From an uncultured Planctomycetota bacterium (GTDB lineage Bacteria; Planctomycetota; CAZGEP01): a stretch of DNA of 64,000 bases. A program made the position numbers and the translations under genes. The notes below the pieces were generated by a model. The model saw only the letters and a program-made list of their open reading frames with translations. It was not told where the DNA came from and did not search any database. The stretch's first letter is position 1; each line of letters starts with the position of its first letter. Of the stretch, positions 13,026-46,700 are shown one piece after another. The stretch is taken from positions 3,627 through 67,626 of the forward strand of contig CAZGEP010000004.1 in NCBI GenBank assembly GCA_964524955.1. The letters run 5' to 3'.

Positions 13026-13282
13026 ACAAGGCCGTCAGATTTTTCACCATATTCAATGCAGTCGCAGACCGTGCCATTGAATCCGGGAACAACGGCAAAG
13101 GCGGTTGAAGCATCTTCCCCCTCACGGATACATTCCGCGGCCTTTGACAGAGAACTCTTCATGTTCGTGCCAACAGGCAGCATCAGACTTTTTTCAATAC
13201 ACTCTTCCAGGGGCATGCCCCTGGCCAGAAGCCGGGCGTAAAGTCGGGTGATCAGCGCAAGTTTTCTGTTTCTGAAAAACAT
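12989..13282 (-). CDS. Stand-alone T2SS-F (GspF/PilC) cytoplasmic-domain-like small protein
   Basis: 97 aa. 'ARLLARGMPLEECIEK...REGEDASTAF...GEKSDGL' matches the T2SSF domain pattern. Starts 1 nt after the GspE-like gene. Confidence 0.45.
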   Translation of the reverse strand: MFFRNRKLALITRLYARLLARGMPLEECIEKSLMLPVGTNMKSSLSKAAECIREGEDASTAFAVVPGFNGTVCDCIEYGEKSDGLVQVFEQMSPQKI

Positions 13283-13283
13283 A

Positions 13284-18983: not shown

Positions 18984-19020
18984 ATTCACTCTCTCCATTT
19001 TCTACCTCTTCTTGTTATTG

Positions 19021-29685: not shown

Positions 29686-30552
29686 AGACAGTCGATGGTC
29701 AATGGTCTATGGCTAATTGCGCTGAAAACCTCCGAATTGACAGGATAAAGAATGACAAAGTATGCATCGCACGGTCGCCGCAGGCATGCAGTTGATCCGT
29801 CCGCTGACGGAAGACACAGGGGCACGGAGAAAAACAACAGCTAAAGATTTTCAACAACGAAATAGACGAAATAAACGAAAAAACTGCATTGAAAACAGAA
29901 TTATGGGAACGCTGAAGATGCAAGAGACGCTATCAAAAGATCAGCACTGCCACAGCCGGTCATGGCCCGGCGCGTCCGGGGCATCCAGGAGCAGCCGACA
30001 CCGATTACGTCCTTATCCGTATATCCTGTTTATCCTGTAAATCCTGTCCAATTCTCTTTCTTTTTGTTGTTCTGAACTAAGACAAAATAGTAGACGGGAT
30101 TGACGGGTCGGCGGAGCCTTGTTTTTGATCCGCCTAGGCGGAATTGACAGGATGAGAAAAGAACAGAACTCTCCTTGTTCTGCGATTTCAGACTGTCAAT
30201 AAAAAGATGAATCCGCTCATCAAGCGTTTTCTCCCGGTTCTGGCTGGAAAGCAAAATAAACTTACTCGCCCAGATTGCGTGAAACTTAATAGTAGACGGT
30301 TTTACCAGTTTTTTATCCTCTAGATACTGCTGAAATTCTTTCAGAACAGCCCTAATATATTCGTTTCTCCTTAATAGGCAAAGTAAATGCTATTAAAATA
30401 TAGTCATACTATCATACATTCCAATTCGAATATTTCAAAAAAATAATTTTTTATTTGACACGGTTCAGTGGTTTTATAAAATTTACCGTTGTCAGAAATC
30501 ATAACTGTAACCTATACACACTAAATTGTTCCCGTCGCGCTGCGCGCGACGG

Positions 30553-30709
30553 GAACGGCGAGTTGAGGGCTTCGCCCCTCGCCCGATTAGTTCCCTGCGC
30601 GCTGATTCGCGCGCCGAGAACAAATCGTTCGAGGGGTCCATTGGCCTATCAACTCCGGGCGCTGAAGCGCCCTCCGATGATAGGTCAACGGCCCCTCAAC
30701 TCGCCGTTC
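30553..30709. repeat. GC-rich, multi-hairpin palindromic element (MITE/REP-like) with about 17-bp terminal inverted repeats
   Basis: Left TIR 'gaacggcgagttgaggg' and right TIR 'ccctcaactcgccgttc'. Internal hairpins include 'gagggcttcgcccctc', 'gcgcgctgattcgcgcgc' and 'gggcgctgaagcgccc'. Confidence 0.5.
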
Positions 30710-30720
30710 GAAGCAAGAGA

Positions 30721-30942
30721 ATGAAGAAACTGAATCGCGAAGAATTGATCATCCTTGTTCAACGCATCATGGATGTCGATGGCACAGAAGAAGAGATCGA
30801 CCAGATGATGGACACATTGGAGGCCAACGTGATCCACCCGGAAGTCTCCGATCTGATATTCTACTCAAAGAAGGAAGACCCGGCCGCAGAGGAGATCGTG
30901 GACGAAGCACTGGCTTACAAGCCCATCATTCTTGGGCCGTGA
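30721..30942 (+). CDS. Colicin/pyocin DNase immunity protein (Im7/Im9 family)-like small protein
   Basis: 73 aa. '...HPEVSDLIFYSKKEDP..EEIV' parallels Im9 '...[23 protein letters not shown]'. Confidence 0.55.
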   Translation: MKKLNREELIILVQRIMDVDGTEEEIDQMMDTLEANVIHPEVSDLIFYSKKEDPAAEEIVDEALAYKPIILGP

Positions 30943-31112
30943 GCGAGACTTCGAACAAGGTCGGTGGAGCGTACGGCTAAAGCCGCCGCTCACCGACGGC
31001 GTTCGCCGGAAAAAGACAGAGATTCCGCAGATTTTCTACGATTTCCGTAAAGCTATGGACCCGAAGATGGGTCTATACTCATAGCAAAGGAAATTTCTGC
31101 AAGGACAACGAC

Positions 31113-32066
31113 ATGAAAGACTTGGCGAAAACCATACAAAACGCCTGTTCTGGCGACCTATACTCATTCGGCAGACTTGTCACCTATTATCAGGATATGG
31201 CATACGCTTATGCGTACTCGCTTTTAGGCGACTTCCATCTTGCCCAAGACGCTACCCAGGAAGCATTTATTGATTCCTATCGGCACCTATCATCGCTTCG
31301 GGTTCCCGAAGCGTTCCCCGGGTGGTTTCGACGGATTGTGCTCAAGCACTGTAATCGACTCACCAGAGGCAAGAGCATACAAACCCTGCCGCTTGACGTG
31401 GCGGGAGAGCAGGAGAGTCCCGAACTGCGGCCCGACGAGGTGCTGATTCGGAGTGAAATACGCTCTTCCGTTCTTGGCGCACTACGGGCGTTGTCTCAGG
31501 ATCAACGGACCGTAGCCTCACTTTACTATATCAACGGCTATTCCCAAGCCGAGGTAGCCGATTTTCTCGATGTGCCGAAAACAACTGTAAACAATCGCCT
31601 TCATGCCGCAAGGCGACGACTAAAGGAAAGGATGGTCACCATGGTGCAGCAAGAACTGACGAACAATGCTCTGCCAAAGGACGAGTTCTGCCACGTAGTG
31701 CTAGACAAGCTCTCGAAGCAACAGGCGGGCCTGATGGCCGGCAGTCCAGTCAACAAGTTTGCCGATCTTGTCATTACCCAAGCCCTGCACGACAAGTGCA
31801 AGCAGATGAGCCTATCCCTCGATGAGAATGGCACCGTCTGCCTGAGTGCACTGTATGATCGCGAATGGAAGGAATGGGCTCCGCCTCCAGCTCGCATCAT
31901 CCCTGCGCTTCTTTCGTTTTTGGCTGCCGCTGCAACATCGGATTCAAACTCCGACGAGTTGGCTGCAGAACTTCCTTTTGTTGCGTCAGATGGTCAGAAG
32001 TACATCGCAACCATCGAGGTGAAGAACATTACCGTCGGGATCACGTTGCCGGAAACGGGGCACTGA
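31113..32066 (+). CDS. ECF-type RNA polymerase sigma factor with a roughly 140-aa C-terminal extension
   Basis: Region 2 'DATQEAFIDSYR' and region 4 'LSQDQRTVASLYYINGYSQAEVADFLDVPKTTVNNRLHAARRRLKE'. Extra C-terminal domain of unknown fold. Confidence 0.7.
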   Translation: MKDLAKTIQNACSGDLYSFGRLVTYYQDMAYAYAYSLLGDFHLAQDATQEAFIDSYRHLSSLRVPEAFPGWFRRIVLKHCNRLTRGKSIQTLPLDVAGEQESPELRPDEVLIRSEIRSSVLGALRALSQDQRTVASLYYINGYSQAEVADFLDVPKTTVNNRLHAARRRLKERMVTMVQQELTNNALPKDEFCHVVLDKLSKQQAGLMAGSPVNKFADLVITQALHDKCKQMSLSLDENGTVCLSALYDREWKEWAPPPARIIPALLSFLAAAATSDSNSDELAAELPFVASDGQKYIATIEVKNITVGITLPETGH

Positions 32067-32166
32067 TTGATCCGGCGAACAACCACATTCAGCATATTGT
32101 CGCTGGCGCGCCAGATGCTGATGTGAAGCGTTATGTGCAAGAAGACAAAAGGAGAAATCAAAGAAT

Positions 32167-32757
32167 ATGAGCGTAGAATTACTTTCTGACTTTATCAGAG
32201 AAAAATATGAGGTGCATGAATGGAAACATGCGTGTGCCATATTGAAAGAGGATTTTACGAACGAATGGAATGATATTATATCTGTATTGGAAAGTTTTCG
32301 CCTAAAAAAGAGTTGGATTACAACTCCAGGAGGCAGGAAATCAAAGGTTTCTGCATATATTGATGGCTATTTATATGATAGGGATTGGGTTGAAAAAGAA
32401 TTTGAGACGAAAGTGACTGTTGATGATCATACAATGGACACACCAACTCATAAAATCGACTGTTTTAAAAATAGAGTGGCTCTTGAAATTGAGTGGAACA
32501 ACAAGGACCCTTTTTATGACCGAGACCTAAATAATTTCAGATTACTGTTTGATTTACGTGCAATTAGCGTTGGAGTGATCATTACACGCTGTGAAGATCT
32601 TCAAGATATTTTCAATGATTTGGGAAGAGGGGCATCTTATGGTGCATCTACAACGCATATGGGGAAATTACTCCCAAGGATTGAAGGTGGAAGTGGAGCT
32701 GGTTGTCCACTCGTTGTTTTTGGAATATCAAAATCACTTTATGTGGAGGATTGCTAA
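32167..32757 (+). CDS. Type II restriction endonuclease of the BglII/BamHI/BstYI family
   Basis: 'KIDCFKNRVALEIEWNNKDPFYDRDLNNFRLL' aligns with BglII 'DIDFGKRDTLVEVQFSNYPFLLNNTVRSELF' (D-x8-E-x-E/Q). RBS 'aaaggag'. AT-rich. Confidence 0.6.
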   Translation: MSVELLSDFIREKYEVHEWKHACAILKEDFTNEWNDIISVLESFRLKKSWITTPGGRKSKVSAYIDGYLYDRDWVEKEFETKVTVDDHTMDTPTHKIDCFKNRVALEIEWNNKDPFYDRDLNNFRLLFDLRAISVGVIITRCEDLQDIFNDLGRGASYGASTTHMGKLLPRIEGGSGAGCPLVVFGISKSLYVEDC

Positions 32758-32759
32758 TT

Positions 32760-33410
32760 ATGAACGCATCTGATGATCTGTTAAATTTTATTGGAAAAAG
32801 AAAATTTTCAACAATACTTGCTGACCCTCCATGGCAGTTTCAAAACAGGACGGGCAAAATGGCACCAGAGCATAAAAGGTTATCTCGGTACCCTACGATG
32901 AAATTACAAGAAATTAAAGATTTGCCGGTTGAAGCTATTGCGGAAGACCGAGCACATCTTTATTTGTGGGTTCCAAATGCACTTTTATCTGAAGGCATGC
33001 AAGTTATGGAGAATTGGGGATTTAAATATAAAACAAATCTAATATGGTACAAGATTAGAAAAGACGGCGGCCCCGATAGAAGAGGTGTTGGATTTTATTT
33101 TAGAAATGTGACTGAAATAATTCTTTTTGGTGTTCGGGGCAAGAATATCAGAACACTACAACCCGGAAGAAGTCAGGAAAACATTATATCATCAAGAAAA
33201 AGAGAACACAGTAGAAAACCAGATGAACAATATGATTTAATTGAATCTTGTAGTTGGGGACCTTTCTTAGAACTTTTTGGTAGAGGGCCAAGAGAAGGCT
33301 GGACAACTTGGGGCAATCAGGCAGAAGAATATACCCCTGATTGGGAAACATATTCAAACCATTCTAATGGGGATAGAATAATACCGTTTAAGAAAGTCAG
33401 GACAGGTTAA
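32760..33410 (+). CDS. MT-A70-family N6-adenine DNA methyltransferase
   Basis: 'ILADPPWQF' (DPPW) motif. RBS 'ggagga'. Starts 3 nt after the REase stop. Confidence 0.7.
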   Translation: MNASDDLLNFIGKRKFSTILADPPWQFQNRTGKMAPEHKRLSRYPTMKLQEIKDLPVEAIAEDRAHLYLWVPNALLSEGMQVMENWGFKYKTNLIWYKIRKDGGPDRRGVGFYFRNVTEIILFGVRGKNIRTLQPGRSQENIISSRKREHSRKPDEQYDLIESCSWGPFLELFGRGPREGWTTWGNQAEEYTPDWETYSNHSNGDRIIPFKKVRTG

Positions 33411-33423
33411 TCACTAGAATCGT

Positions 33424-34269
33424 ATGCATTATTATACGCAAAACTATAACAATGTGATGGATTTTGAGCGATCATGCATGGTTGCAGAAGAAGCTAATCC
33501 ACCATTCTATTATGATGTTTCTAATGGAATAAAACTATATAATGCAGACACTTTTTCATTTTTCAAAAATATACCAGATGGTTGTGTTGATCTAATATTT
33601 GCCGATCCTCCGTATTTCCTGTCTTCAGGAGGTATAACTTGCCATAGTGGTAAAATGGAAAATGTAAATAAGGGGGAATGGGATAAATCAAAACCAATTG
33701 AGGAAATTCACAATTATAACAAACAGTGGCTATCAGAGTGCAATCGTATTTTGAAAAAGCATGCTACTATTTGGGTTTGTGGAACATTTCACAATATTTT
33801 TTCTGTCGGATTCGCTTTGCAAGAATTAGATTTTAAAATATTAAACAATATAGTGTGGGAAAAGAAAGATCCTCCGCCGAATTTAACAAAAAAATACTTT
33901 GTCCATGCTTCTGAACATCTTCTTTGGGCATCAAAAACAAAATATTCTAAGCATATCTTTCATCAAGATGCTCTCAAAGAAGTTTCAAACGGGGAACCAA
34001 TGAAGTCTGTATGGAGGGATATATGGAAATTGCCATCAGTAGATCATTTAGAGAAAGTTTTTGGTAAACACCCAACACAAAAACCAGAAGAGGTTATTCG
34101 GAGAGCAGTGCTTGCATCAAGTAATATTGGGAGTCTGGTTTTCGATCCATTTTGTGGTAGTGGGACAACAGGAGTTGTCTGTAGAAGAATGAACAGAAGG
34201 TTTGTTGGCGTTGATAATAATTTAAAGTACTTGGATATCGCAAAAAAAAGAATAGCATCAGTAAAATGA
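33424..34269 (+). CDS. Beta-class DNA methyltransferase (N4-cytosine or N6-adenine; DPPY)
   Basis: Motif IV 'FADPPY' precedes motif I 'DPFCGSGTTG'. Confidence 0.7.
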   Translation: MHYYTQNYNNVMDFERSCMVAEEANPPFYYDVSNGIKLYNADTFSFFKNIPDGCVDLIFADPPYFLSSGGITCHSGKMENVNKGEWDKSKPIEEIHNYNKQWLSECNRILKKHATIWVCGTFHNIFSVGFALQELDFKILNNIVWEKKDPPPNLTKKYFVHASEHLLWASKTKYSKHIFHQDALKEVSNGEPMKSVWRDIWKLPSVDHLEKVFGKHPTQKPEEVIRRAVLASSNIGSLVFDPFCGSGTTGVVCRRMNRRFVGVDNNLKYLDIAKKRIASVK

Positions 34270-34367
34270 AAAATAGAGAGAAATTGCACATAACAAATCA
34301 CTGCACTGGATTTTTACTCCGCTGCGCTCCGTAAAAACCAGTGAGTTCAGTCGTTGGCGCCACTGCA

Positions 34368-35801
34368 ATGAATAAAAACAAGCCAAATATCATTCTGTTC
34401 ATCACGGAACAACACCGCGGTGACTGTCTCGGCATAGAAAACCACCCCGTGTTGATGACCCCGAACATGGACGCCATCGCGGGCGCGGGCGTCCGTTTCA
34501 CCCGGGCCTACTCCAACTGTCCGACCTGCATTGCCGCGCGACGCACGATTCTGTCCGGCCAGTTCCCCCCCACCCACGGTATGGTCGGATATCAGGAGGA
34601 TGTACCCTGGGAAATCGAGGACACCCTTCCTGCGGTCCTGTCGAAAGCGGGTTACGAAACCGCCTGGATCGGACGCAGCATGCACCAGTACCCGATCGAC
34701 AAACCGTTCGGGTTCGAGCACTACGTCCGAAGCGGGCTCGACGCGGCGAGCCCCTACATGCGTTTCTTTCGCGAACGCCGACCCGACGACTGGGAAGCCC
34801 AATTCGGCACCGGCATCAGGAACAACGATTGGACCTCGCGGCCCTGGCATTTGGACGAGGACCTGCATCACACGAGCTGGACGGTCCATGAAGCGTTGCG
34901 CTTTCTCAGAGACCGCGATACGACGCGGCCCTTCTTCCTGGTGGTTTCGTTCCTTGCCGCCCATCCGCCCCTGGTGCCGCCCGCGTTCTACCTGGAGCGC
35001 TACATCCGCACCGGAGTTCCTGATCCCGTGATCGGCGACTGGGCCGAGCCGCCTCCCAATGGCGGCAAGGGGCTGGATATCGGCGGACACCGGGTGGACC
35101 TGAAAGGGGAAGCCCTGCTATGCGCGCGAGCCGGCTACTACGGGCTAATCAACCACATGGACGATCACATCCGCCGCCTCCTTAACCCCGTGGCCGGAGT
35201 GGACCGCATGACGGGCAACAACACGGCCGTCATGCTGACAAGCGACCATGGCGAGATGCTTGGCGACCACTATCGGTGGCACAAGGTCGTCCCCTACGAG
35301 CCGTCCGCGCGCATCCCGATGCTGCTGCGTGCTCCGGCACACTTCGGAATCGAGCCCGGAACCGTGATCGACCGGCCCGTTTGCCTGACGGACGTCATGC
35401 CGACGTTGCTCGACCTGGCGGGCACGCCCGTGCCGCCAGGCGTAGAGGGACTGAGCCTCTTGCCGCTGCTACGCGGCGAAGAGACATCCTGGCGCGACTA
35501 TCTTCACATCGAACATGCGCCCATGCACCATGCGCTGACGGATGGTCGGGAAAAATATGTCTGGTTCGTCACCGACGGCCGCGAGCAGCTCTTCTGCCTG
35601 GACAACGATCCCTCGGAGTGCCATGATCTGGCCGGTTGTCCCGCGGCAGCGGAACGCCTATCACACTGGCGGGGACGAATGATTCAGGAACTGGACGGCC
35701 GCCCGGAGGGTTTCTGTGATAGCGGAACCCTCATTCCCGGCAGTGAGTACAAACCTGTGTGCTCGCGCGCCAACAAGCCGGATGCTCGCGACGGCTCATA
35801 G
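34368..35801 (+). CDS. Sulfatase, no signal peptide, variant FGly motif C-I-A-A-R
   Basis: 'MNKNKPNIILFITEQHRGD' and 'CPTCIAARRTILSGQ'. High GC. Confidence 0.75.
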   Translation: MNKNKPNIILFITEQHRGDCLGIENHPVLMTPNMDAIAGAGVRFTRAYSNCPTCIAARRTILSGQFPPTHGMVGYQEDVPWEIEDTLPAVLSKAGYETAWIGRSMHQYPIDKPFGFEHYVRSGLDAASPYMRFFRERRPDDWEAQFGTGIRNNDWTSRPWHLDEDLHHTSWTVHEALRFLRDRDTTRPFFLVVSFLAAHPPLVPPAFYLERYIRTGVPDPVIGDWAEPPPNGGKGLDIGGHRVDLKGEALLCARAGYYGLINHMDDHIRRLLNPVAGVDRMTGNNTAVMLTSDHGEMLGDHYRWHKVVPYEPSARIPMLLRAPAHFGIEPGTVIDRPVCLTDVMPTLLDLAGTPVPPGVEGLSLLPLLRGEETSWRDYLHIEHAPMHHALTDGREKYVWFVTDGREQLFCLDNDPSECHDLAGCPAAAERLSHWRGRMIQELDGRPEGFCDSGTLIPGSEYKPVCSRANKPDARDGS

Positions 35802-35839
35802 CCGCGCGAGATCCGCGACGTTCGCTCAACTGAAGAAAC

Positions 35840-37159
35840 ATGGAGATGTGCATGACACATAAGAATATCCTCCTAATTACGACAGATCAGCAGAGTTCCA
35901 CCATGCTAAGCTGCAGCGGTAATCCTGACCTGCACACACCACACATTGATACATTGGCGTCGGATGGTGTGCGCTTCGAAAAAGCATATGCAGCCCAACC
36001 GCTTTGTATTCCACAACGCTGTTCTTGGTACACGGGCCTCATGCCACACCGCCACGGAATTACTTTCAATGTGACAAACAAAGACATCCAGGCAGAATCA
36101 ATGATGGGGCAGATATTTCGGGACGCGGGCTACGCAACCGGATATTCCGGAAAGTGGCACATCAATACTTCGCCTGAAAACAAACCATTCCACGGATTTG
36201 AGTGGATGAACAATATCCGGTGCAACGGTGCAGACGCGGGGATTGCGGCTGACTTTGAAACGTTTCTCAGTATGAATTGTGACCGACCGTTCATCTTTTC
36301 AGCCTCATTCAATAATCCCCATAACATATGTGAAGCCGCTCGCGGAGGCCCATTTCCCGACGGCGAACCGGGCTTGCCAGAGAATACGAACCAGTTGCCT
36401 CGACTTCCGGAGAATTTCGGCGTGCCCGAAAGGGAACCTTCCGTGATCCGCGAAGTGCAAAATATGTTGAGAATAAGTAACTATCCAACGAGCAACTGGG
36501 ACGAGATGCGATGGCGTCTGCACCGCTGGTTCTACTGCCGACTTACGGAAATTGTAGACAGGCGCATTGGCGGGCTTCTTGAAACCCTGCAACAAAGAGG
36601 TCTGAGCGACAACACGCTTATTGTCTTTACTAGTGATCATGGAGACGGCAACGCCCACCACCAATGGAACCAGAAACAGGTATTGTATGATGAATCGGCG
36701 AGGGTGCCCTTTATTGTGAGCCGGCCAGGTAGCAGAATGAATCGTCTCGACGGAAAACAGCTCGTCAATACAGGGATTGATCTCATTCCTACATTATGCG
36801 GGCTTGCCGAGATTGACTGTCCGCCTCACCTGGATGGTCATGATTGGTCCGAGGCGTTGTCAAACGACGATCTTCCATCACGGCGAGACCATGTGATTAT
36901 CGAGACGGAATTTGGAACGTTCGGAAAGCCATTGGGGTATCGGGGACGGGCGGTGCGCACTGGGCGCTATAAATACATGGTTTATGATCGGGGTGAAAAC
37001 CGTGAGTATTTTTGCGATATGAATAACGACCCCGGCGAGACTATCAACCTTGCCGGCATCCCTGACCATCAAGAGGAATTGCTTAGTCACCGCGCCCTTC
37101 TGCGCGACTATATAGCCAAAACCGACGACATATTTCCTGTTGAGATGCTACCGGCTTAA
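35840..37159 (+). CDS. Sulfatase, no signal peptide (C-I-P-Q-R)
   Basis: 'NILLITTDQQ', 'CIPQRCSWYTG' and 'GKWHI'. Confidence 0.8.
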   Translation: MEMCMTHKNILLITTDQQSSTMLSCSGNPDLHTPHIDTLASDGVRFEKAYAAQPLCIPQRCSWYTGLMPHRHGITFNVTNKDIQAESMMGQIFRDAGYATGYSGKWHINTSPENKPFHGFEWMNNIRCNGADAGIAADFETFLSMNCDRPFIFSASFNNPHNICEAARGGPFPDGEPGLPENTNQLPRLPENFGVPEREPSVIREVQNMLRISNYPTSNWDEMRWRLHRWFYCRLTEIVDRRIGGLLETLQQRGLSDNTLIVFTSDHGDGNAHHQWNQKQVLYDESARVPFIVSRPGSRMNRLDGKQLVNTGIDLIPTLCGLAEIDCPPHLDGHDWSEALSNDDLPSRRDHVIIETEFGTFGKPLGYRGRAVRTGRYKYMVYDRGENREYFCDMNNDPGETINLAGIPDHQEELLSHRALLRDYIAKTDDIFPVEMLPA

Positions 37160-37274
37160 CTGTTGTCCTTGATCATAGGCAAATTAACGAAGAGGGAAAT
37201 AGCAGGAGCGAACAAGCCGTTGCTCGCGACGGCTTATAGCCGCACGAGAACGGCGAGTTCGGAGACAAGACAAT

Positions 37275-38396
37275 ATGCTAAAATATTTATTGGCCTCACT
37301 GCTTCTGTGCTTCTCTCTTGTCTATGGCAAGGAGATCTCGCAGTGGCAGAGGAACAAGCGCAGCCTTCTGACAAACTTCAACAACATGTATCAGCCGTGT
37401 GTCGTAGAAACTGGGGGCAAGTATCCCTATAAGATGTGGTTTTTCGGCTGGGCGGCTGCCAGGACGAACCCCGGTTGGCCGGGGTGCGATGCGATATTTC
37501 ACGCACGTTCAAAAGATCTGAAGACCTGGGAAGTCTACAGCCAGGACGGGAAATGGGATACCACCATGAATCCAAAGGCCTGGGTGCCTGTCCTTCACGC
37601 CAGCGACCGCTGGTACGATGCCTGGCATGTCGGCGACCCGTCCGTTGTGCTCAGAGACGGCAAGTTGTTCATGGCCTACAGCGCCACATCCAAGCACTTC
37701 AGTAAGCGTGAAGGCTATCCCGCCACTATGGTGCAGTGTGTCATGGGGGCGGTATCCGAAGATGGTATTCACTGGAAAAAAACCCAGCAGCCTCTCCTGA
37801 TTCGCGCTGGTGACACCGCCAACCCTGAGCCCGAACAGGAACGGATCGGCGATTTCCACCGCCCATGCCTGCTCTGGGATAAAGGGAAATGGCGACTCTG
37901 GTTTGATTACTGGTTGCCCGGCAAGGGGGTCTGCATGGGCTACGCAGAGAACAAAGGGGATTTTGCGGCCGCAGGCGGTTTCAAAATCCAGAACGACCTT
38001 ACGCAACCGCTGATTGAGGGCTGGCCGAACCCTGACATCATCCGTATCGGTGAGACCTACCACAGTTTTTCCGATGCCCCTGGATATCCTGGTGAATCGG
38101 GGTGGAAGGGACGACAGCTCCGCGAAGCAGTTTCGAAAGACGGTATCACCTGGGAACTGCGCGACTTTATTCCTCCAGACGAGGACACCGATGCTAATCA
38201 CGTTCCACAGGCCTTTACCACGACCCTTGATGGCAAGCGCTGGCTCTATATCTTCTATGCCACCCAGATTGGTAACGGGCTAAACGATGGGAGGTACCAC
38301 TTTGAGTACAACCGCATACGGGCGATGCGACGACCAATCGACAACTCCGAACAATCTCCTGCAGGCGACAGCCTAAAGGCCGCGCCTGAGGAGTAG
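37275..38396 (+). CDS. Secreted glycoside hydrolase, 5-bladed beta-propeller type (GH43/GH117/GH130-like)
   Basis: Signal peptide. 'WHVGDPSVVLRDGKLFMAYSA' matches the GH43-like propeller motif. Confidence 0.45.
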   Translation: MLKYLLASLLLCFSLVYGKEISQWQRNKRSLLTNFNNMYQPCVVETGGKYPYKMWFFGWAAARTNPGWPGCDAIFHARSKDLKTWEVYSQDGKWDTTMNPKAWVPVLHASDRWYDAWHVGDPSVVLRDGKLFMAYSATSKHFSKREGYPATMVQCVMGAVSEDGIHWKKTQQPLLIRAGDTANPEPEQERIGDFHRPCLLWDKGKWRLWFDYWLPGKGVCMGYAENKGDFAAAGGFKIQNDLTQPLIEGWPNPDIIRIGETYHSFSDAPGYPGESGWKGRQLREAVSKDGITWELRDFIPPDEDTDANHVPQAFTTTLDGKRWLYIFYATQIGNGLNDGRYHFEYNRIRAMRRPIDNSEQSPAGDSLKAAPEE

Positions 38397-38418
38397 CGTT
38401 CGAACAAAAGGAGCCACT

Positions 38419-40167
38419 ATGAGGAACTCACAATTGGAATTGGATCTTTCCAGAATCGCTTTCAGCCGTTATGAAAGCAATCTCGCGATTTGCGTTTGCG
38501 GCCAATCGAAAGCGCTGTGGCTACGTCACATCTATGGCGGCAGAGCAACAAATCTATTCCGCCTGGATGTTATGGGCTTCTCGGGCATTACAAATCCAAC
38601 GGTTCGTGCCGTTCCCGGGTTAATGTGGTTGTCCGACACTCATGGCCGAATCGAGATCGTGATGCCGGAACCAAACACGATCCGCATCCGCAGTCATAGG
38701 ATGAATCTGCACCTTGTCGGCTCGGATTCACGTCGGTGTGATTTGATGATTCCGGCAGCCGACGATCAATGGCGATGCATTATGAGCAGAGCAAAACTCC
38801 TGTTCACGCCGATTTCCGGGACCATGAAGGTAGAAGCTCCTTGGATGCCAGCGAAGGGCACGAAGCAAAAGCATCATGGCACCCATCCGATCCATGTTAC
38901 GATTGATGGTGATTCTGATGAATGGGAGTTTCAGATCAACACCTATGAGAGCGAGATAAACCCTCCGGTTATCCGTAGCCGTTTCGCCGAAGCGCACCGA
39001 CAGAGCAAAGAGTCCTTCGCCTTTTGGCTCAGGAATACAACTTCTGTGCCGGAACGGTATCAGCCGGCTCGCGAATTGGCGGCCTATGTCGGTTGGTCGG
39101 CTGTCGTTCCGGCCGCCGGGAACTACCATGCGCCATCGATGCTCATGAGCAAAAACTGGATGGTGAATACCTGGAACTGGGATAACTATATCAACGCTTG
39201 GGCGAGTGTCTACCGCGATCCGGATTTTGCCTGGGACCAGTTTATGTTGCACATCCGGCATCAGCATCCGACTGGTGGTCTGGGCGATGGCATCAACGAG
39301 CAAAGCATCGGTTGGTCCTACACCAAGCCCCCTGTGCATGGATGGATCCTGCGACGGATGGCGGAAGCCAACCCCGCCATCGACCGCACGCGTATAGCTC
39401 AGGTGTATGAGCCAATATGTCGATGGACGGAGTGGTGGTTTCGCTATCGCGATGACGATGATGACGGCATCTGCCAGTATCACCACGGTAACGACAGCGG
39501 ATGGGATGATGCCACGGCATTTGACATCGGCTGTCCCAATGAGGCGCCGGACCTCAATGCGCTTCTGATCCTGCAGATGGATGCGCTCGGCGAATTCGCA
39601 CAATGCCTCGGTAAACATGACGAGGCAGCGGTTTGGGGCAACCGCTCACGTGAAATGCTGGAACGCTTCGTGGAACACAGTTGGCGCGAAGGACGGTTCG
39701 CCGCCATGGTCAGCGGGAGCCATGCCTATGATCCCGGGAACCAGTGTTTGTTGAGCTATATCCCCTTGGTACTCGGGAGCCGATTGCCGAAGGCAATTCG
39801 GAAAGAGATGATTTGTGGCCTGATGCGGCAGGGAGGATTTCTAACAGAATGGGGGCTGGCCACGGAATCAGTTGACAGCCCGGACTACCTGTCTTGTGGC
39901 TACTGGCGTGGATCGATTTGGCCACCGCCTATGTTGATGATCGTGGACGGCTTACACGATGCCGGGGAGAATGAGCTTTCGGAGGACCTTGCCGAGCGCT
40001 TTTGCCGATTGGTGGCCACACACGGCTTCGGTGAGAACCACGATGCGCTCACTGGCGAGATTCATTACGACCCGGCATACACGTGGTCAGCGAGTGTGTT
40101 TCAGCTGTTCGCACACTTGTATCTGCATGACAGAACAAAAGAACAAGAATCAAGTTCTCCTGGTTGA
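38419..40167 (+). CDS. Cytoplasmic (alpha/alpha)6-barrel glycoside hydrolase (GH63/GH37/GH15-like)
   Basis: Trp-rich 'NTWNWDNYINAW' and 'GNDSGWDDATAFD' motifs typical of alpha-alpha-toroid glycosidases. No signal peptide. Confidence 0.4.
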   Translation: MRNSQLELDLSRIAFSRYESNLAICVCGQSKALWLRHIYGGRATNLFRLDVMGFSGITNPTVRAVPGLMWLSDTHGRIEIVMPEPNTIRIRSHRMNLHLVGSDSRRCDLMIPAADDQWRCIMSRAKLLFTPISGTMKVEAPWMPAKGTKQKHHGTHPIHVTIDGDSDEWEFQINTYESEINPPVIRSRFAEAHRQSKESFAFWLRNTTSVPERYQPARELAAYVGWSAVVPAAGNYHAPSMLMSKNWMVNTWNWDNYINAWASVYRDPDFAWDQFMLHIRHQHPTGGLGDGINEQSIGWSYTKPPVHGWILRRMAEANPAIDRTRIAQVYEPICRWTEWWFRYRDDDDDGICQYHHGNDSGWDDATAFDIGCPNEAPDLNALLILQMDALGEFAQCLGKHDEAAVWGNRSREMLERFVEHSWREGRFAAMVSGSHAYDPGNQCLLSYIPLVLGSRLPKAIRKEMICGLMRQGGFLTEWGLATESVDSPDYLSCGYWRGSIWPPPMLMIVDGLHDAGENELSEDLAERFCRLVATHGFGENHDALTGEIHYDPAYTWSASVFQLFAHLYLHDRTKEQESSSPG

Positions 40168-40267
40168 GCGTAGAGATGAAAGTGATCGTTCGAACCATCA
40201 GGTGCAGGCGACGCTTGACAGCGCGCCTCAACTCGCCGTTGGGCGAACCCCAAGAAGAGTTTTATAA

Positions 40268-40570
40268 ATGGCTTTGATTAAGTGTCCTGAATGCAATAAT
40301 GACGTATCGACCTCGGCAGCGTCGTGTCCCAAATGTGGCGCACCTATAGCGTCACAAACTAGCCGCATCACCGAACCAACAATACCGAGGGGAAAAGTAC
40401 AATGCGGGCATTGCCGGGCAATCGTAAAACCTCAAAAAATGGAAGCTGGATGTAGCTCACTGATCATAGCTATACTACTTCTCTGCCTTGGTATTATCCC
40501 TGGAGTAATCTATATCATTTGGGAAAGTAGCAGAAAACAATGTCCAAACTGCAAACTGCCAATAAAGTGA
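40268..40570 (+). CDS. Zinc-ribbon domain protein with a C-terminal TM helix
   Basis: 'CPECNN...CPKCG' and 'CGHC...CPNC', plus a hydrophobic stretch 'LIIAILLLCLGIIPGVIYIIW'. Confidence 0.5.
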   Translation: MALIKCPECNNDVSTSAASCPKCGAPIASQTSRITEPTIPRGKVQCGHCRAIVKPQKMEAGCSSLIIAILLLCLGIIPGVIYIIWESSRKQCPNCKLPIK

Positions 40571-40582
40571 ACGACGCCCAAC

Positions 40583-40611
40583 AACGGTTGAGGGCTTCGC
40601 CCCTCGCCGTT
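40583..40611 (+). repeat. GC-rich hairpin 'aacggttgagggcttcgcccctcgccgtt', a copy of the repeat family at 30563..30583
   Basis: The 21-mer 'ttgagggcttcgcccctcgcc' is identical at 30563 and 40588. Lies 13 nt after the zinc-ribbon gene stop. Confidence 0.6.
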
Positions 40612-40675
40612 GGACCAGCCATATCGATAGCCAGACCGAATCTGTGGCGCAGGGCGCGAAGCGAGTATTCAGAGT

Positions 40676-43471
40676 ATGTCAAACCATTGGTACAACATCG
40701 AAGGCTGTCTGACATTCTATCGTGATCTGAAAGGGGTAGAGCAGTGGCTCATACGCGGCCACAAGGAGTTACCCACCTCGGACTTCAGCGGGCTTCTCGA
40801 TACTGTCATGCGTTGGCTAGTTGACAACCCAGCGTATGGCGACATCGCGGCGGATGTTGTTCAGCTCCTCTCCGGGTACGACCCCAAATACACTGCGCAG
40901 TGGCACGAGGCTGAGGAGGCCCGCAGGCGTGAAGCGGAACTCCGCGCACGAGAGATACAGGAAGCACAGGAACGCCGGAAGAAGGAAACTGAACTACTCG
41001 CACAGCAGCAACGAGAGGCTGAGGCGCGTCAAAGACGTGAGCGCAAACTTGCGGAGAAAAAGCAGGCACTCATGGACCGTTGCCACGAGTGGTTTCAGAC
41101 GGACTTCCTTACAGCGGACAGGCGCTTCAGAGACGATGCCGACCGCAAGCTGCTAACGGCTCGTGAGTATTCTGAGTTGAAGACAGCCTTTGTCCAGGGT
41201 TGGGTCCACACAGAGCTTCACCTGTCGCTTGATATCGAGCAGGCTCAGGCGGTCGCCGGTGGACCCCGCGACATGCTGGTTGTTGCCAGAGCGGGTGCTG
41301 GTAAGACCCGCACGCTAGTCACCCGCGCCGTCTTTCTCCAGAAGCACTGCGGTGTCCCGCCTGCCGCCCTGCTTCTGCTTGCGTTCAATCGCGATGCTGC
41401 GCGGGAAATGCAGCAGCGGCTGCATGAAGCCTTGGGTGGCGATTTGCCACACATCATGACCTTCCACGCATTGGCCTATGCGTTGGTGCATCCGGACGAG
41501 GAACTCGTCTATGACAAGCCCTCAGCCGGAAGTCTCGGCCACAGCCGTGCGATTCAACAAGCCATCGATGAACACCTGCAGGCGGACCGGTACCGTGCCA
41601 TGATCCGCGACCTGATGCTCTTGCACTTCAAAGATGATTGGGAGCGCATAGTTGCCGGTGGGTTCAACCTGCCAATCGAGGAGTTGATCGAATACCGGCT
41701 GGCATTGCCGCGCGAGACTCTGAGGGGCGAGTACGTCAAGTCCTTCGGAGAGAGACTAATCGCCAACACACTCTTTCAGAACGACGTGGAATACAAATAC
41801 GAACGAAACTATCGGTGGAATGGCGTCAACTACCGGCCCGACTTCACTATCCTGCTGCCCGGACGGCGTGGCGTTGTAATCGAGTACTTTGGTCTCGAAG
41901 GTGAACGCGACTACGATGAGATGTCAGCAGACAAGCGGGCGTTTTGGGCTTCCCGCCAGGGTTGGACCCTGATCGAATTCTACCCACAAGATATTGCATC
42001 TCAAGGTGTTGATGGTTTTACCGAGTGCATTGTGAAGCGTTTAGCTGATGCCGGGGTCACAACTCGTTCTCTTTCAGATGACGAAATATGGCAGCGCATT
42101 CGCAGACGGGCCATCGACAGTTTCACAGGCGCAGTTCGGTCGTTAGTCAGTCGCTGCCGGAAACTGAACCTAACGGGCGAGCAGTTGGCTGGCTTAATCG
42201 ACGGTCATACCCCGATTACTGAAGCAGAACGGTTGTTTCTGGCTGTGGGAGCGTCTGTATACGTTGCGTATCTGGAGCGCCTCCGGTCTTCTCAACAAGA
42301 GGATTTCGACGGCCTGATGTGGAGGGCAATCACCTTGGTGGATTCTGGCCATAGCCAGTTTGCACGGGACAGAGGGCGCGAGCGCGGAGACTTGCGTAGA
42401 ATCCGCCATGTGCTGGTAGATGAGTTTCAGGACTTCTCTCAGATGTTCTACCGCATGGTGCAAGGGATTCGGACACTCAGTCCGCACGCCGACTTCTTCT
42501 GTGTGGGTGACGACTGGCAAGCAATCAACGGCTTTGCTGGCTCGGACTTGAGATTCTTCCGTGAGTTCAGCGAATTGTTCCGAGAGCCAACAACCTTTAC
42601 CGTCAGCACCAATTATCGTTCACCAGCAGGAGTTGTTGAACTCGGGAATGCCCTGATGGTAGGACGCGGGAGTCCCGCCAAGCCACACCGAGAAGACGCC
42701 GGGTGTGTGAGACTGGCAGACTTAGGCAGTTTCATGCCGTCACCCGCCGAACGAGCACGACATGAAGGGGATGATGCGACCCCATTTCTGCTTCGGCTGA
42801 TTCGGCGGTTGCTTGATTGTGGCGATTCCATCGTGCTCCTCTCGCGACGTAACGGCGTTCCTTGGTATGTGAAGTACCATGCTGACCTGCCAGCCGCTGT
42901 CGATGGGCTTGAACGCTTCGCTGAGCACATCCGCATGTTCTTACCGGAAGACGAGCGCGGCCGCCTGACCGCCTCGACTGCCCACCGGTACAAAGGCCGT
43001 GAACGAGAGGCTGTAATCATACTCGACGCCGACGAAGGCTGCTATCCTCTCATCCATCCCAACTGGGAATTCCTCCGAGTGTTTGGCGATACGTTGGAAG
43101 CCATTGAGTCAGAGGAGCGCCGGCTATTTTACGTGGCGCTGACCCGATCCCAGAAGACGCTGGTCGTTCTTGTCGAGAGCGAGAGGCGCGAAAGCCCTTA
43201 CCTGAGAGAGATCAAAACGCGCGAGGATATTCAAGCAATCGAATGGGAGCAACTCCGCCCAGTGCCTTCGCTTGATGGCGACAGACTGGAAGTGCACGTG
43301 TCAAATGCATATGAGGTCCACAATGAACTGGCGGCGCAGGGATATCGATGGGAGGAGGGCCAGAAGTACTGGTATCGTCTGGTGATGGCGGAAGGTTTCG
43401 ACTTGCGCAACCTGAAGCGTCAAGCGTGGGCGCGACAGGGCGTGTGTATCGACGGGTTACTGTTTTCTTAA
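40676..43471 (+). CDS. UvrD/Rep-like SF1 helicase with an embedded Vsr/DUF559-like PD-(D/E)xK nuclease-like domain and an N-terminal coiled coil
   Basis: Motif I 'ARAGAGKTRT', II 'VLVDEFQDFS', III 'VGDDWQAINGFAGSD', IV 'TNYRS', V/VI 'TAHRYKGRE...LFYVALTRSQKTL'. Insert at about aa 345-440, 'NYRPDFTILLPGRRGVVIEYFG'. Confidence 0.7.
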   Translation: MSNHWYNIEGCLTFYRDLKGVEQWLIRGHKELPTSDFSGLLDTVMRWLVDNPAYGDIAADVVQLLSGYDPKYTAQWHEAEEARRREAELRAREIQEAQERRKKETELLAQQQREAEARQRRERKLAEKKQALMDRCHEWFQTDFLTADRRFRDDADRKLLTAREYSELKTAFVQGWVHTELHLSLDIEQAQAVAGGPRDMLVVARAGAGKTRTLVTRAVFLQKHCGVPPAALLLLAFNRDAAREMQQRLHEALGGDLPHIMTFHALAYALVHPDEELVYDKPSAGSLGHSRAIQQAIDEHLQADRYRAMIRDLMLLHFKDDWERIVAGGFNLPIEELIEYRLALPRETLRGEYVKSFGERLIANTLFQNDVEYKYERNYRWNGVNYRPDFTILLPGRRGVVIEYFGLEGERDYDEMSADKRAFWASRQGWTLIEFYPQDIASQGVDGFTECIVKRLADAGVTTRSLSDDEIWQRIRRRAIDSFTGAVRSLVSRCRKLNLTGEQLAGLIDGHTPITEAERLFLAVGASVYVAYLERLRSSQQEDFDGLMWRAITLVDSGHSQFARDRGRERGDLRRIRHVLVDEFQDFSQMFYRMVQGIRTLSPHADFFCVGDDWQAINGFAGSDLRFFREFSELFREPTTFTVSTNYRSPAGVVELGNALMVGRGSPAKPHREDAGCVRLADLGSFMPSPAERARHEGDDATPFLLRLIRRLLDCGDSIVLLSRRNGVPWYVKYHADLPAAVDGLERFAEHIRMFLPEDERGRLTASTAHRYKGREREAVIILDADEGCYPLIHPNWEFLRVFGDTLEAIESEERRLFYVALTRSQKTLVVLVESERRESPYLREIKTREDIQAIEWEQLRPVPSLDGDRLEVHVSNAYEVHNELAAQGYRWEEGQKYWYRLVMAEGFDLRNLKRQAWARQGVCIDGLLFS

Positions 43472-43679
43472 ATTGTTTATCCATAATTCTGCCTCCATAT
43501 CGATATAACCGGCCGAGGTAAAACGTAACTCGGAAAAAATAAAAAAATATTGGAATTGTTATTTTATTAAACAAGCAGCGGACTGACAGGGAAAAGTGCT
43601 TGATGTAAAAGATACGTATACGCGAAAAGCGATATCAGACAGGGAAAGAGAAAGGTATTATCCTCTCCCTGGCAACACG

Positions 43680-43726
43680 TTACAAAAATATAACCGCCAC
43701 AGCATACTGCCGTGGCGGTTATATTT
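43680..43726 (-). terminator. Rho-independent terminator for 43772..47551
   Basis: Perfect 15-bp stem 'aaatataaccgccac/gtggcggttatattt' with an 11-nt loop, followed on the minus strand by a U-run. Confidence 0.6.
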
Positions 43727-43771
43727 ACGTGATGTTTATTCTTTCGACGAAACTGCGAAACATACCATCTA

Positions 43772-46700
43772 TTATTTATAACCGAGAATGATGTCTCCGA
43801 GCATGGTGGCTGTTTCGGCTGTCTTTCCTTTCTTTCCGCGTTTTCGTCCCACTTTCAAGACCAGGGACCAGGTAGTTTCGTCACCCGGTTTGTAGTAGGC
43901 CTTGAACACGGAAAGCGGAATGCGAAGTTCGGCCTGCCAGCGGCCGGGTTCGCTCTTGACCCGACGGTACCATTTGAAATTACAGGAGGCATTTCCGCCA
44001 AAGGAGTCAAACTGTTTGCCGATGCTGTTTAAGGCCAGGCGATAGGTCTTGCCGGTTCCGGACTTGGGTGTAATGTCCAGACAGACATAATCATCGGTCT
44101 TTAATACACCGTTGTTGTCCCGGCGCGTGCATCGGGCAATGGGCTTGCGGTTCTTTTCCAGCTGATTCTCGATCCGAAACCAGAGCGCGTCTTCTGAAAG
44201 CAGGAAAGCGGCCTTGCTTTTCTGCTGTGCCGGTTTTCCCTTGACCAGGAATTCGGTCAGGTCTCTGGCCTTTTTCCAGGCGGCTTCGCTGAGTTCTCCG
44301 TCCAGTTCAGGCGCTTTCCGGGTAAAGAGTGGTAACAGGGAAAAGGTGTAGGCCAGTTTTTCAGCCTTTTTGCCTTTCAAGTCCATTCCGACAACCAGGG
44401 GACAGATTTCCGGCGCGTCTTTGATCCTGTCAAAATCACGATGCACGGTAAAGATCCGGGTGTGTTCGGAAAGATGATCCAGTCCACGAATCGGCATTGT
44501 TGGGAATGGGACGGACCATCCATTGGCGGCAAAAGATAAATCTCCATCTGCAAAGGATTTGTCCACGCGCTCAATTGCAATGCGGAATTCAGCGCGTTTC
44601 TTTCCGCTGGCTGTGTCTGTGATCCGAAAGGCATCCTTTCGGACATCCAGAATCACGCCCGTGTTTTTGTAGCTGTCCCGTGTCACGATCGTAGTGTACC
44701 GCGGGTCTACGCTCTTTTTTTCAATCGTCCTGATCACTTCAAAACCCGTGACACAGTCCCGGAATACAGCGGTCCAGGTTCCCTGCGGATCGTTCATACA
44801 GAGCGGAATTTCGCCTTGAGCGACACCACCGGGCGCGTTCAGGTTCTGACAGTAATTCTCCCGGCAGACTCCTCTGGGATCAAAGACCTCGACATGTACG
44901 ACGTGCTCCATAGCAGACCCGTCTGTGTCCAGTGCTGCCTTAAAATGCCAGGGATACGACTCACCGAGTTCAACATTGAATCCCTTGACTTTGTACGGCA
45001 GTGCTGCAAAGACATATCCCTCCACCGGAATCATCTCATAGTCAAATTCATCGACCTCGCCCAGATAGGTTCCTCTGCGGCAGTCATAGATATGCCGCTT
45101 CCAGGGAACGTTCACGCGAACCGACAGATTCGCGGAAGAGTCCAGACCGGAAATTTTAGTCGCGCCCAGCTGATCCTGCGTAATTTTGGCATTGACCACA
45201 ATGCTGAAGAGATCCATGCCCTTGCGTTTGTACATGAAACGCTGTACCACGTGCCGGTCTTTTCCAGTCGTTGGGTCCAGCACTGTAATCTGTTTTTTGA
45301 CACCTGCCATGTCCAGCAGGTTGCGGGTAAGGGCACGCAGATTGGGTCCGATCTCGCGTTTGTCATTCAACCGTTTCTGCTGATAATCCATCCAGGAGAT
45401 GTTGGTATAGATAAACTTGCCTTTTCCGTAAGGATTCACGATCATGGCCGGAGCTCCGCCCGCGTCGGCCAGTGCTGCGGCGCCGCGACGCACTTTGATG
45501 CCCGGCTCCACGATGCGCAGTTCATCGATTCCAGCGTCCTTGAACAGGTCCGCGTATTTCGCGCCTTTGTTAAACGTAACAGGACTCTTTGCCTTTTTTA
45601 GCCATTCTTTGTTCCTGGCTTTCATGATATGGCTCTGTTTGGGACAGAAGGAACCATTGACTTCGGCAACAATGTAATTTTCCCGTTCAATTCCAAACGC
45701 ATCATCCAGCTGTCCCTTTTTCAGGCGTTTGCCGTGTTCGTCAAAGCAGGCGGTCATGTTGTCGGCCACGCAGACTCCGCCCTTCTTGACCCACTTGCGG
45801 ATCGCTTTGACCTCGTCCTCAGACATGGCACACGTTTTGTTCAAAACCAGAAGCTTGAATCCCTGCTTTTCCAGTGCTCCGTCCAGCAACCGCTCATCAT
45901 CCACAAACTTATACAACAGTCCGCTGTCTTCAAAGACCTTCATCCAGGAGAGACGGTTCTTGAGCAGACAGGAGTGACTGCTCTCGTAGGAACTGTAGCG
46001 ACGCGGCCAGGTAGAGGCGTCCACTTCCGAATCCAGCATCCAGTGAACCCGGATCGACGGCTGCGAATAGTAGATCGCGACCGGGTCGTTCTGAATCACG
46101 GAGGGCACCATGACTTTGCCCAGACCATCGTGAAGTTCGTGAAAAAAATTGCGCATGGCTCGTCCATAGCTCCAGAGAATCACACCGTCGTCTCCCCGCA
46201 GAAAGAAGCGCCACAGTACGTACTTGGATTTATCGGTACTACCGAAATTGGTTCGGACCGAACGCAGGTCCGGCCGGGCAAAGGAGCGAATTACGTCCCT
46301 GGAGCCACCCCAGTCATAGGCCTCGCAATACGTCATTTCCTTGAGCAGCAGGGGCCAGTTCCAGCCCGACCAGGCCAGCGGGGCCTGGCCACCCACAAAT
46401 CCCGCATATGTTTCAGGTATTTGTTCTTTGATGATTTTATAATACATGGCCAGAAAATCCGCCCAGTGTTCGTCCACAAACTGAATTCGATCCCAAAGCG
46501 CGGAGAAGTTCTCGCTGCCCGGATCACAGAACTGTTCCGCGGTCAGTTCGAACCGGCCCACTCCCGGCACCAGCTTTCCCTTGAGATATGGCGTATGCTT
46601 CATCTTGGCGTCATCAATGGTATCCGGCATCACCTCGTCCCAGGTTTTGAAGTGGGTGTCCCACTGTTTATTCAGCTCCTTCACGGATTTATATCGCGTC

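Follow-up and report, generated by a model that had tools for sequence, protein, structure and literature searches.

A probable integron gene-cassette array without a neighbouring integrase, carrying sulfatase, glycoside-hydrolase-like and restriction-modification cassettes in an uncultured bacterium

Contig CAZGEP010000004.1 of an uncultured Planctomycetota bacterium (assembly GCA_964524955.1) contains, within the 64-kb stretch that we analyzed (hereafter, the window), a series of genes of differing base composition that are separated by GC-rich hairpins. An earlier note had described positions 30400-43500 as a higher-GC accessory or defence island, horizontally assembled and bounded by hairpin repeats. 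What kind of element is it? We conclude that 30529-40609, on the forward strand, is very probably a chromosomal integron gene-cassette array of the CALIN type, a CALIN being a cluster of attC sites without an integron integrase nearby, delimited with a clustering threshold of 4 kb (Cury 2016, PMC4889954). The array spans 10 kb and consists of eight gene cassettes and two units without an open reading frame (ORF). All of its ORFs are co-oriented with an attC site at the 3′ end of each, and its 10 attC sites are separated by gaps of 2.2 kb at most. Horizontal assembly, piece by piece and with hairpins marking the junctions, was therefore correctly recognized in the earlier note, but the assembly is an integron array and not a generic or defence island, and its borders are narrower than had been proposed.

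The spacers between the genes share one layout. Each of the 10 sites reads ...NNNNAAC, ~5 nt, two stem arms, 5-6 nt and GTTNNNN..., which is the R″-L″...L′-R′ order of an attC site. The cassettes are laid out just as regularly, with a leader (14-36 nt in seven cassettes and 111 nt in that of the sigma factor), then the ORF (three in the restriction-modification (R-M) cassette) and finally attC. The integron integrase, IntI, cuts at G|TT, and a cassette therefore opens with the TTNNNN of the preceding site and closes with its own attC, the R″ of which is complementary to that opening. We tested this chain rule by comparing the reverse complement of the R′ of each site with the R″ of the next, and found all seven positions to be identical in nine of nine links, while the R′ and R″ of one and the same site agreed at just 3-6 of seven positions. 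The background among unrelated junction pairs is 5.5%, and comes almost entirely from A/T-rich, low-complexity 7-mers. Seen from the cassette, the opening six bases of every cassette complement the start (R″) of its own attC. This match is the signature of crossover at G|TT, and we regard it as decisive. The right border of the array is given by the R′ of the last site, E (40609-40615).

Hairpin repeats had been reported at five junctions in the region, and all five are real and beyond chance; however, five further sites (A-b, A2, S3, S4, and S7) had been overlooked. A 29-nt unit occurs at both 35783 and 37221, and a 22-mer is identical at 30562 and 40587, with no such matches in shuffled sequences. 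The hairpin in the region of site D contains AACGGCGAGTTGAGG at 40226. The most complex block lies at 30.5 kb, where 30553-30569 and 30693-30709 form a perfect 17-nt inverted repeat and 30520-30725 folds with a z-score of -10.6. The 17-bp long-range stem is formed by the right half of A-b pairing with the left half of A-a, and the preferred reading of the block is a stack of two attC units, A-a and A-b, neither of which has an ORF.

The AAC triplet at the end of R″ and the GTT triplet at the start of R′, which are the only sequence universal among attC sites (Cury 2016, PMC4889954; Nivina 2016, PMC5027507), are present in all 10 sites, and the R-box consensus of this attC family is nnCGAAC/GTTCGnn. 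When folded as bottom-strand DNA, the sites form an R box of 5-6 bp, a small internal loop, an L stem and a terminal loop of 3-4 nt. On the arm opposite the AAC triplet, the L stem has two single-base bulges 7 nt apart. If numbering starts at the outer end of R″, as we assume the published numbering to do, sites C and S7 have bulges at 16 and 23, B at 17 and 24, S3 at 16 and 23/24, A2 at 18 and 23/24, and S4 and D at 23. In every site, T is the inner bulged base (within a two-base loop in A2 and S3). The folds agree with the published attC geometry of extrahelical bases, an unpaired central spacer and a variable terminal structure (Nivina 2016, PMC5027507; Bouvier 2009, PMC2727003). Against a length of ~57-141 nt for attC sites, seven of the sites measure 56-72 nt and A-b measures 98 nt, while E (40 nt) and A-a (~47 nt) are too short.

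Covariance models led to the same sites. The best matches outside the training set of a model trained on four sites were D, E, and S3, and a broader model that included metagenome sites (R2) recovered S4, S3, D, A-b, and E, with no other match on the two strands of the window, a search space of 128 kb. A sequence-agnostic scan for AAC...GTT hairpins had an L-box filter that was too strict and missed several true sites, so that it serves as a rough negative control only. A search of the hairpins against Rfam returned no matching family.

Base composition changes at the same borders. The R-M cassette, at 36.4% GC (z = -5.4; 26-29% at third codon positions, GC3), and the sulfatase cassette that follows it, at 62.8% GC (z = +4.2; GC3 76%), are the extremes singled out in the earlier note as AT-rich and markedly GC-richer, respectively, and both observations stand. 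The z-scores are set against 31 backbone genes, which have a mean GC content of 51.2% (sd 2.8). Change-points in GC at 32131, ~34400, and 35826 match the crossovers at 32130/31 (the G|TT of S3), 34353/54, and 35820/21, and the jumps in composition thus fall on cassette borders. The mosaic is real, but local: composition varies cassette by cassette, and the block as a whole is not the higher-GC island that had been suggested, since 30400-43500 has 51.9% GC versus 50.0% in the rest of the window (50.4% for all 64 kb) and the array alone has 50.9%. A high GC content and strong folding mark the spacers from 30.5 to 40.7 kb, except for 34270-34367 (45% GC, -15.8 kcal/mol). Most others in the window have 26-47% GC and fold weakly, the exceptions being 13026-13283 (51% GC, -22.7 kcal/mol) and a hairpin at 43677-43735. 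The non-coding flanks were rightly called AT-rich (41.8% on the left and 38.3% on the right), but so are most spacers of the window.

Evidence for mobility came from the GC-rich sulfatase, whose relatives are 94%, 82%, and 80% identical, as against 47% for a backbone gene. Two attC sites of this family (81.6 and 51.9 bits) enclose the 94% copy on contig L030, where its neighbours are different, namely a BNR_2 gene and a hypothetical gene. At the nucleotide level, the two loci are 95.3% identical over 1465 bp, from 34352 to 35816 of the window, with the cassette having been predicted at 34354-35820. On the left, the sequences are unrelated up to the core GTTGGCG and identical from there; on the right, homology crosses the cassette's own attC and ends 4 nt before G|TT. 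Judged from the sequences, this is direct evidence that the sulfatase cassette moved as a unit between arrays. An 80%-identical homologue lies at 1849-3246 of contig L032 (60% GC), which has no attC site. It is consistent with the cassette having originated in a GC-rich lineage and may represent the non-mobile, ancestral context of the gene.

The attC family extends well beyond this host. The 29-nt core of sites B and C was found on nine JGI metagenome contigs with 46-69% GC, several of which hold multi-site arrays that obey the chain rule (three links at 7/7 and one at 6/7). In an alignment of 20 sites (19 distinct rows), 90.9% of cells are paired and compensatory changes occur in 16 of the 22 stem pairs. 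Covariation scores 0.435, compared to 0.108 in shuffles (none of 500 reaches the observed value) and 0.05-0.08 in slid controls. The alignment was fitted to the model structure and so leans towards it; the slid controls are nevertheless flat. The three triplet pairs are standard in 18, 19, and 18 rows, with the R′ of L026 and of L027:1985-2053 among the exceptions. On contig L027 (68.6% GC), an array of the family is divergent from a 5′-truncated integron integrase gene (TIGR02249 positions 188-313 of 315, E 2e-46; XerD 84 bits), and this neighbourhood would link the attC family, indirectly, to an integron integrase. The integrase-bearing contigs L028 and L029 do not carry the narrow family and have one weak site only. 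Cargo of the same-family arrays includes HigBA, ParE, PIN, HNH, a GDSL esterase, a trypsin-like peptidase, sulfatases and BNR sialidase-like proteins, which is typical chromosomal-integron cargo together with glycan-degrading enzymes.

Several observations weigh against the interpretation of the locus as an integron array. Neither a tyrosine recombinase nor an integron integrase was found in the 64-kb window (Phage_integrase, TIGR02249, tblastn), nor was an intI pseudogene or a recognizable attI (Pfam, NCBIfam, tblastn, BLASTP). The link from A-a to A-b matches at five of seven positions only. The extended consensus RYYYAAC/GTTRRRY is followed at about two of its four variable positions, which is the chance level, with a full fit in E only. 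At the first bulge, the one nearest to the R box, C (A in S3) stands where G is usual. Cassettes are usually smaller than the 1.1-2.2 kb ones found here, and attI cannot, in general, be recognized by sequence. Sites E and A-a are shorter than the sites of at least 57 nt described by Nivina 2016 (PMC5027507), and may be decayed.

Given a cluster of attC sites without an integrase in the window, the array is therefore a CALIN by the IntegronFinder definition (Cury 2016, PMC4889954). Of the components that adjoin each other in a complete integron (intI, attI, and the cassette promoter, Pc), only a promoter-like site is present. By analogy with the mechanism known for integrons, the folded bottom strand of attC would be recognized by an IntI whose gene lies elsewhere or has since been lost. 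The enzyme would cut the AAC triplet between A and C, which is G|TT on the top strand, and would thereby insert, excise, and reshuffle single cassettes. The array would be transcribed from the promoter-like site, a possible Pc-like driver, and the cassettes would have come from donors of differing GC content that have this attC family in common. In a variant of this interpretation, the array belongs to, or is serviced by, a complete integron of the same genome. Its intI and attI would then lie outside the window, on the remaining 7.7 kb of the contig or on another contig, or would have been split off by a rearrangement, with the AT-rich 840-bp stretch to the left of the array as a remnant of the platform. 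About half of all CALINs occur in replicons or genomes that encode IntI (Cury 2016, PMC4889954), the source contig (71,734 bp) extends past the window, a strong promoter-like site immediately precedes the first core site, and the same attC family is linked to intI in L027. Against this, searches with Pfam, NCBIfam and tblastn, and with BLASTP versus real IntI N-domains, detected no intI fragment in 29686-30527 or elsewhere in the window, and we consider the variant plausible but short of probable.

Might the hairpins instead be palindromes of the repetitive extragenic palindrome (REP), bacterial interspersed mosaic element (BIME), or miniature inverted-repeat transposable element type, or terminators or mRNA stabilizers, within a mosaic that arose by unrelated transfers? 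Like REPs and BIMEs, they are short, GC-rich, imperfect palindromes between co-directional genes; several copies have sequence in common, and they belong to no Rfam family. However, REPs delimit no exchangeable units, and neither REPs nor terminators predict the nine-of-nine chain rule, the AAC and GTT triplets, the one-sided bulges, the link to an integrase, or the break of homology at G|TT. REPs are, moreover, associated with RAYT transposases and not with IntI. No T-tracts follow the stems, terminator-like sites number 20 compared to 19.2 in shuffles, and no copies of the hairpins occur elsewhere in the window, all of which makes this explanation very improbable. We give equally little credence to a classical genomic or defence island, inserted as one block at a tRNA gene by a phage-type integrase and provided with repeats later. 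The R-M system, the immunity-like gene and a UvrD-type helicase with GajB-like matches in PADLOC do lie within 13 kb of each other. Yet the locus is not of the island type, because there is no integrase, no tRNA gene anywhere in the 64-kb window, and no flanking direct repeat. Composition differs for each cassette and averages to that of the backbone; the helicase lacks a GajA partner, resembles helicase IV/UvrD most closely and does not depart from the backbone in composition; and a single cassette, type II R-M, matches a defence-system model. The features of the CALIN-type array that we favour are listed in Table 1.

Table 1. Features of the predicted cassette array and its left border, in window coordinates
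Feature	Position	Strand	Basis
Candidate promoter, TTGACA-16-TAAAAT, 46 nt before the first core site	30455..30482	+	Consensus match only (11/12 matches)
First core site GTTCCCG, left array border; its complement CGGGAAC opens the next site	30528..30534	+	Site layout, chain rule
Probable integron cassette array, first G|TT to last	30529..40609	+	Chain rule 9/9; covariance-model matches here only, on + only
attC-like site A-a, ~47 nt, R″ CGGGAAC, R′ GTTCCCT, E-like, no ORF	30550..30596	+	Parse by inspection; 22-mer identical to site E
attC site A-b, 98 nt, R″ CGAGAAC, R′ GTTCGAA, no ORF	30615..30712	+	Model R2 match 30611-30716, E 0.086
Colicin/pyocin-immunity-like protein, 73 aa (cassette 30707-31001)	30721..30942	+	PF01320, weak: 24 bits (cut-off 21.2), E 4e-5
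attC site A2, 58 nt, TTCGAAC ... GTTCGCC	30950..31007	+	Chain rule, fold, covariance model
Extracytoplasmic function (ECF) sigma factor with C-terminal extension (cassette 31002-32130)	31113..32066	+	Sigma70_r2/r4, TIGR02937
attC site S3, 63 nt, GGCGAAC ... GTTATGT	32074..32136	+	Chain rule; R2 E 4.5e-4
Type II R-M, three ORFs (cassette 32131-34353)	32167..34269	+	Pfam; PADLOC MTase_II
BglII-family endonuclease of R-M cassette	32167-32757	+	PF09195, E 8e-46
MT-A70 methyltransferase of R-M cassette	within 32703-33410	+	PF05063, E 7e-33
N6/N4 CcrM-like methyltransferase of R-M cassette	33424-34269	+	PF01555, E 2e-57
attC site S4, 72 nt, AT-rich, ACATAAC ... GTTGGCG	34288..34359	+	Chain rule; R2 E 8e-5
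Sulfatase (cassette 34354-35820)	34368..35801	+	Profile match; same cassette in L030
attC site B, 59 nt, CGCCAAC ... GTTCGCT, overlaps sulfatase stop codon	35768..35826	+	Chain rule, fold, covariance model
Second sulfatase (cassette 35821-37257)	35840..37159	+	Profile match
attC site C, 57 nt, AGCGAAC ... GTTCGGA	37207..37263	+	Chain rule, fold, covariance model
373-aa protein, faint GH130-like similarity (cassette 37258-38398)	37275..38396	+	Below thresholds
attC site S7, 59 nt, TCCGAAC ... GTTCGAA, overlaps 3′ end of ORF	38346..38404	+	Chain rule, fold, covariance model
MGH1-like glycoside hydrolase (cassette 38399-40238)	38419..40167	+	PF22422, E 1e-48
attC site D, 56 nt, TTCGAAC ... GTTGGGC	40189..40244	+	Chain rule, fold; R2 E 0.039
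Zinc-ribbon/LITAF-like membrane protein, 100 aa (cassette 40239-40609)	40268..40570	+	Profile match
attC-like site E, 40 nt, GCCCAAC ... GTTGGAC, last site	40576..40615	+	Weak model score; backed by chain rule

Four of the eight gene cassettes are metabolic (two sulfatases and two glycoside-hydrolase-like (GH-like) proteins), and only one, the R-M cassette, matches a defence-system model in PADLOC. The gene content listed in the earlier note was thus largely correct as regards R-M, the ECF sigma factor, the two sulfatases, the two GH-like proteins and a UvrD-type helicase; the immunity gene is a weak assignment, and the supposed defence character was not borne out, most cassettes being metabolic or regulatory. 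A search of PDB sequences with the endonuclease gave no match. Relatives of the MGH1-like glycoside hydrolase are at most 65% identical and show a loose association of GH and sulfatase genes only, with otherwise no common gene order. An ORF at 31865-32170 (101 aa, 'hyp101') is probably spurious; it overlaps the 3′ end of the sigma factor gene, contains S3 and matches no family.

The helicase gene downstream of the array (40676-43471) had been included in the island as a GC-rich helicase-nuclease. At 56.5% GC (z = 1.9, GC3 62%) it is within the backbone range, and scans of domain libraries found no nuclease domain. It is closest to helicase IV/UvrD/PcrA, with helicase IV as the best NCBIfam match. 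Matches to the GajB model of Gabija (1e-32) are not accompanied by the ATPase-nuclease GajA, the neighbours being the Zn-ribbon protein and a GH42-like gene. We also considered the helicase as a last cassette and rejected this, as the expected R″, GTCCAAC, is absent from 43472-43771, where there is no model match either. Because it has no downstream attC and is of backbone composition, we place the gene outside the array. At its N-terminus, the protein is extended by ~185 aa that can be aligned to helicase IV (HelD-type). An insertion breaks up the helicase core, residues 188-635 matching only ~270 positions of the Pfam profile, and residues 346-427 match PDC-S68, a candidate family in PADLOC. 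The hairpin at 43677-43735, in the spacer where the helicase and GH42-like genes converge, is AT-rich with 28-nt arms and a GC core (AAAAATATAACCGCCAC...GTGGCGGTTATATTT); it resembles an intrinsic terminator for both directions and has no relation to the attC family.

On the other side, 840 bp without a recognizable gene (29686-30527) separate a prenyltransferase-like gene from the array. GAATTGACAGGAT occurs there twice exactly (29734 and 30141) and once as a degenerate inverted copy (30032), and the promoter-like site, the best of the region, is a near-consensus sigma-70 promoter. The stretch may be a decayed attI/intI platform, although nothing supports this. A stop-to-stop fragment at 30389-30033 on the reverse strand was considered as the N-terminal SAM-like domain of IntI and discarded, with none found in Pfam, NCBIfam, or BLASTP versus the N-domains of L028 and L029.

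A second type II R-M block, at 26739-28820 (39.7% GC, z = -4.2), comprises genes for an MjaI-type endonuclease and for an N6/N4 methyltransferase whose C-terminal domain is SNase-like. It sits precisely between a DUF116-polyprenyl synthase gene and the prenyltransferase-like gene, which are directly adjacent to each other in two distant relatives (L016, a Kiritimatiellae metagenome-assembled genome, and L018). We rejected it as an integron cassette, there being no attC at either end; it is therefore an independent insertion by another route. No recombinase was found in the block.

The host is an uncultured bacterium of the PVC superphylum (named after Planctomycetes, Verrucomicrobia, and Chlamydiae), from a deep-branching lineage with no close sequenced relative; the best relative of its polyprenyl synthase, a backbone protein, is ~47% identical among 5.8 billion proteins. 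The genes of the window mark a sulfatase- and GH-rich genome of the PVC type. Sulfatases lie at 1.7, 3.5, 23.6, 34.4, 35.8, and 61 kb, and giant GH42-like/CBM9 genes at 14.7 and 43.8 kb (14676-18998, which carries CBM9, and 43772-47551, which adjoins a CBM9-like gene at 47551-48429). Such genes are spread along the window and are therefore backbone-type content, not specific to an island. Two chondroitinase-B-like paralogues are in tandem (19021-20802 and 20807-22597), and the polysaccharide-degradation genes of the backbone are duplicated locally, in contrast to those borne on cassettes.

The integrase genes of the comparison contigs deserve a separate comment. Relatives of the L027 integrase are all called as short proteins (114-223 aa). 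In L028 (7240-8579) and L029 (7187-8582), intI is divided between two ORFs, with Phage_int_SAM_4 in the N-terminal one and Phage_integrase in the C-terminal one; an 87-aa GIY-YIG ORF of L028 lies between these halves or overlaps them. The split could be due to insertion of a homing endonuclease or intron, or to recurrent pseudogenization in this integrase clade. An RVT_1/GIIM gene directly follows intI in L029, and an ORF in L026 (1174-1668 in coordinates of the reverse complement) that, by eye, resembles a group II intron reverse transcriptase adjoins an attC site of the family. Group II introns are known to target attC sites.

How does the array compare with known systems? Integrons, CALINs, and R-M cassettes have been described before, and the array adds a further example. 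As in other CALINs, at least two attC sites are separated by less than 4 kb, the cassettes are promoterless and point the same way, no intI is in reach, and the cargo is mostly something other than antibiotic resistance. As 83% of CALINs have fewer than six sites, this one is among the larger, and integron arrays and CALINs are known from, among others, Verrucomicrobia and Planctomycetes (Cury 2016, PMC4889954). It differs from them in its deep-branching PVC host, in its long cassettes (1.1-2.2 kb), which carry sulfatases and GH-like genes, and in its attC family, where the R-box consensus is CGAAC/GTTCG and the first extrahelical base is a C. With the sedentary chromosomal integrons of Vibrio cholerae (the superintegron, with its V. 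cholerae repeats) and Xanthomonas, it shares a chromosomal location and similar attC sites, and the same-family arrays commonly carry toxin-antitoxin cassettes (HigBA, ParE, and PIN in L020, L022, and L023). An R-M system is likewise known as a cassette (XbaI; cited in Ghaly 2023, PMC10661359). Unlike those integrons, the array has no adjacent intI/attI platform, is much shorter than those of vibrios, and has attC sites that range from near-identical (B and C) to very different (S3 and S4). The recombination sites have the same architecture as those of mobile class 1-5 integrons, down to the 7-nt extrahelical spacing of attC-aadA7 (G16/T23; Nivina 2016, PMC5027507), but the array lacks the resistance genes, the transposon or plasmid context and the integrase of that group. 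Less usual here are the long sulfatase and GH cassettes, the two very short sites, and an attC family that occurs across hosts of very different GC content. A literature search gave no mention of sulfatase or GH-like integron cargo, although absence there is not proof.

In place of a 'mosaic island', the integron mechanism accounts for each junction and each GC jump, to the base. The locus adds an integron array from a lineage without a close sequenced relative, with unusual cargo that includes an ECF sigma factor and a three-gene R-M system, and its natural attC variants, with C for G at the first extrahelical position or with very short sites, are usable to probe the requirements of IntI. 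Glycan-type cassettes are found in L019, L030, and L031 (sulfatases, BNR sialidase-like proteins, and a GDSL esterase), besides those described here. We suggest, tentatively and as a proposal that is more doubtful than likely, that integrons of this attC family might be a regular vehicle for the exchange of sulfatase and glycan-degrading genes among polysaccharide-degrading PVC bacteria with genomic GC contents of ~46-69%. If such cassettes are common, integrons would be a route by which sulfatases and carbohydrate-active enzymes (CAZymes) are traded among marine and sediment polysaccharide degraders, and, if the proposal is true, cassette capture would be one contributor to the sulfatase and CAZyme repertoires of PVC bacteria, which are very large and variable.

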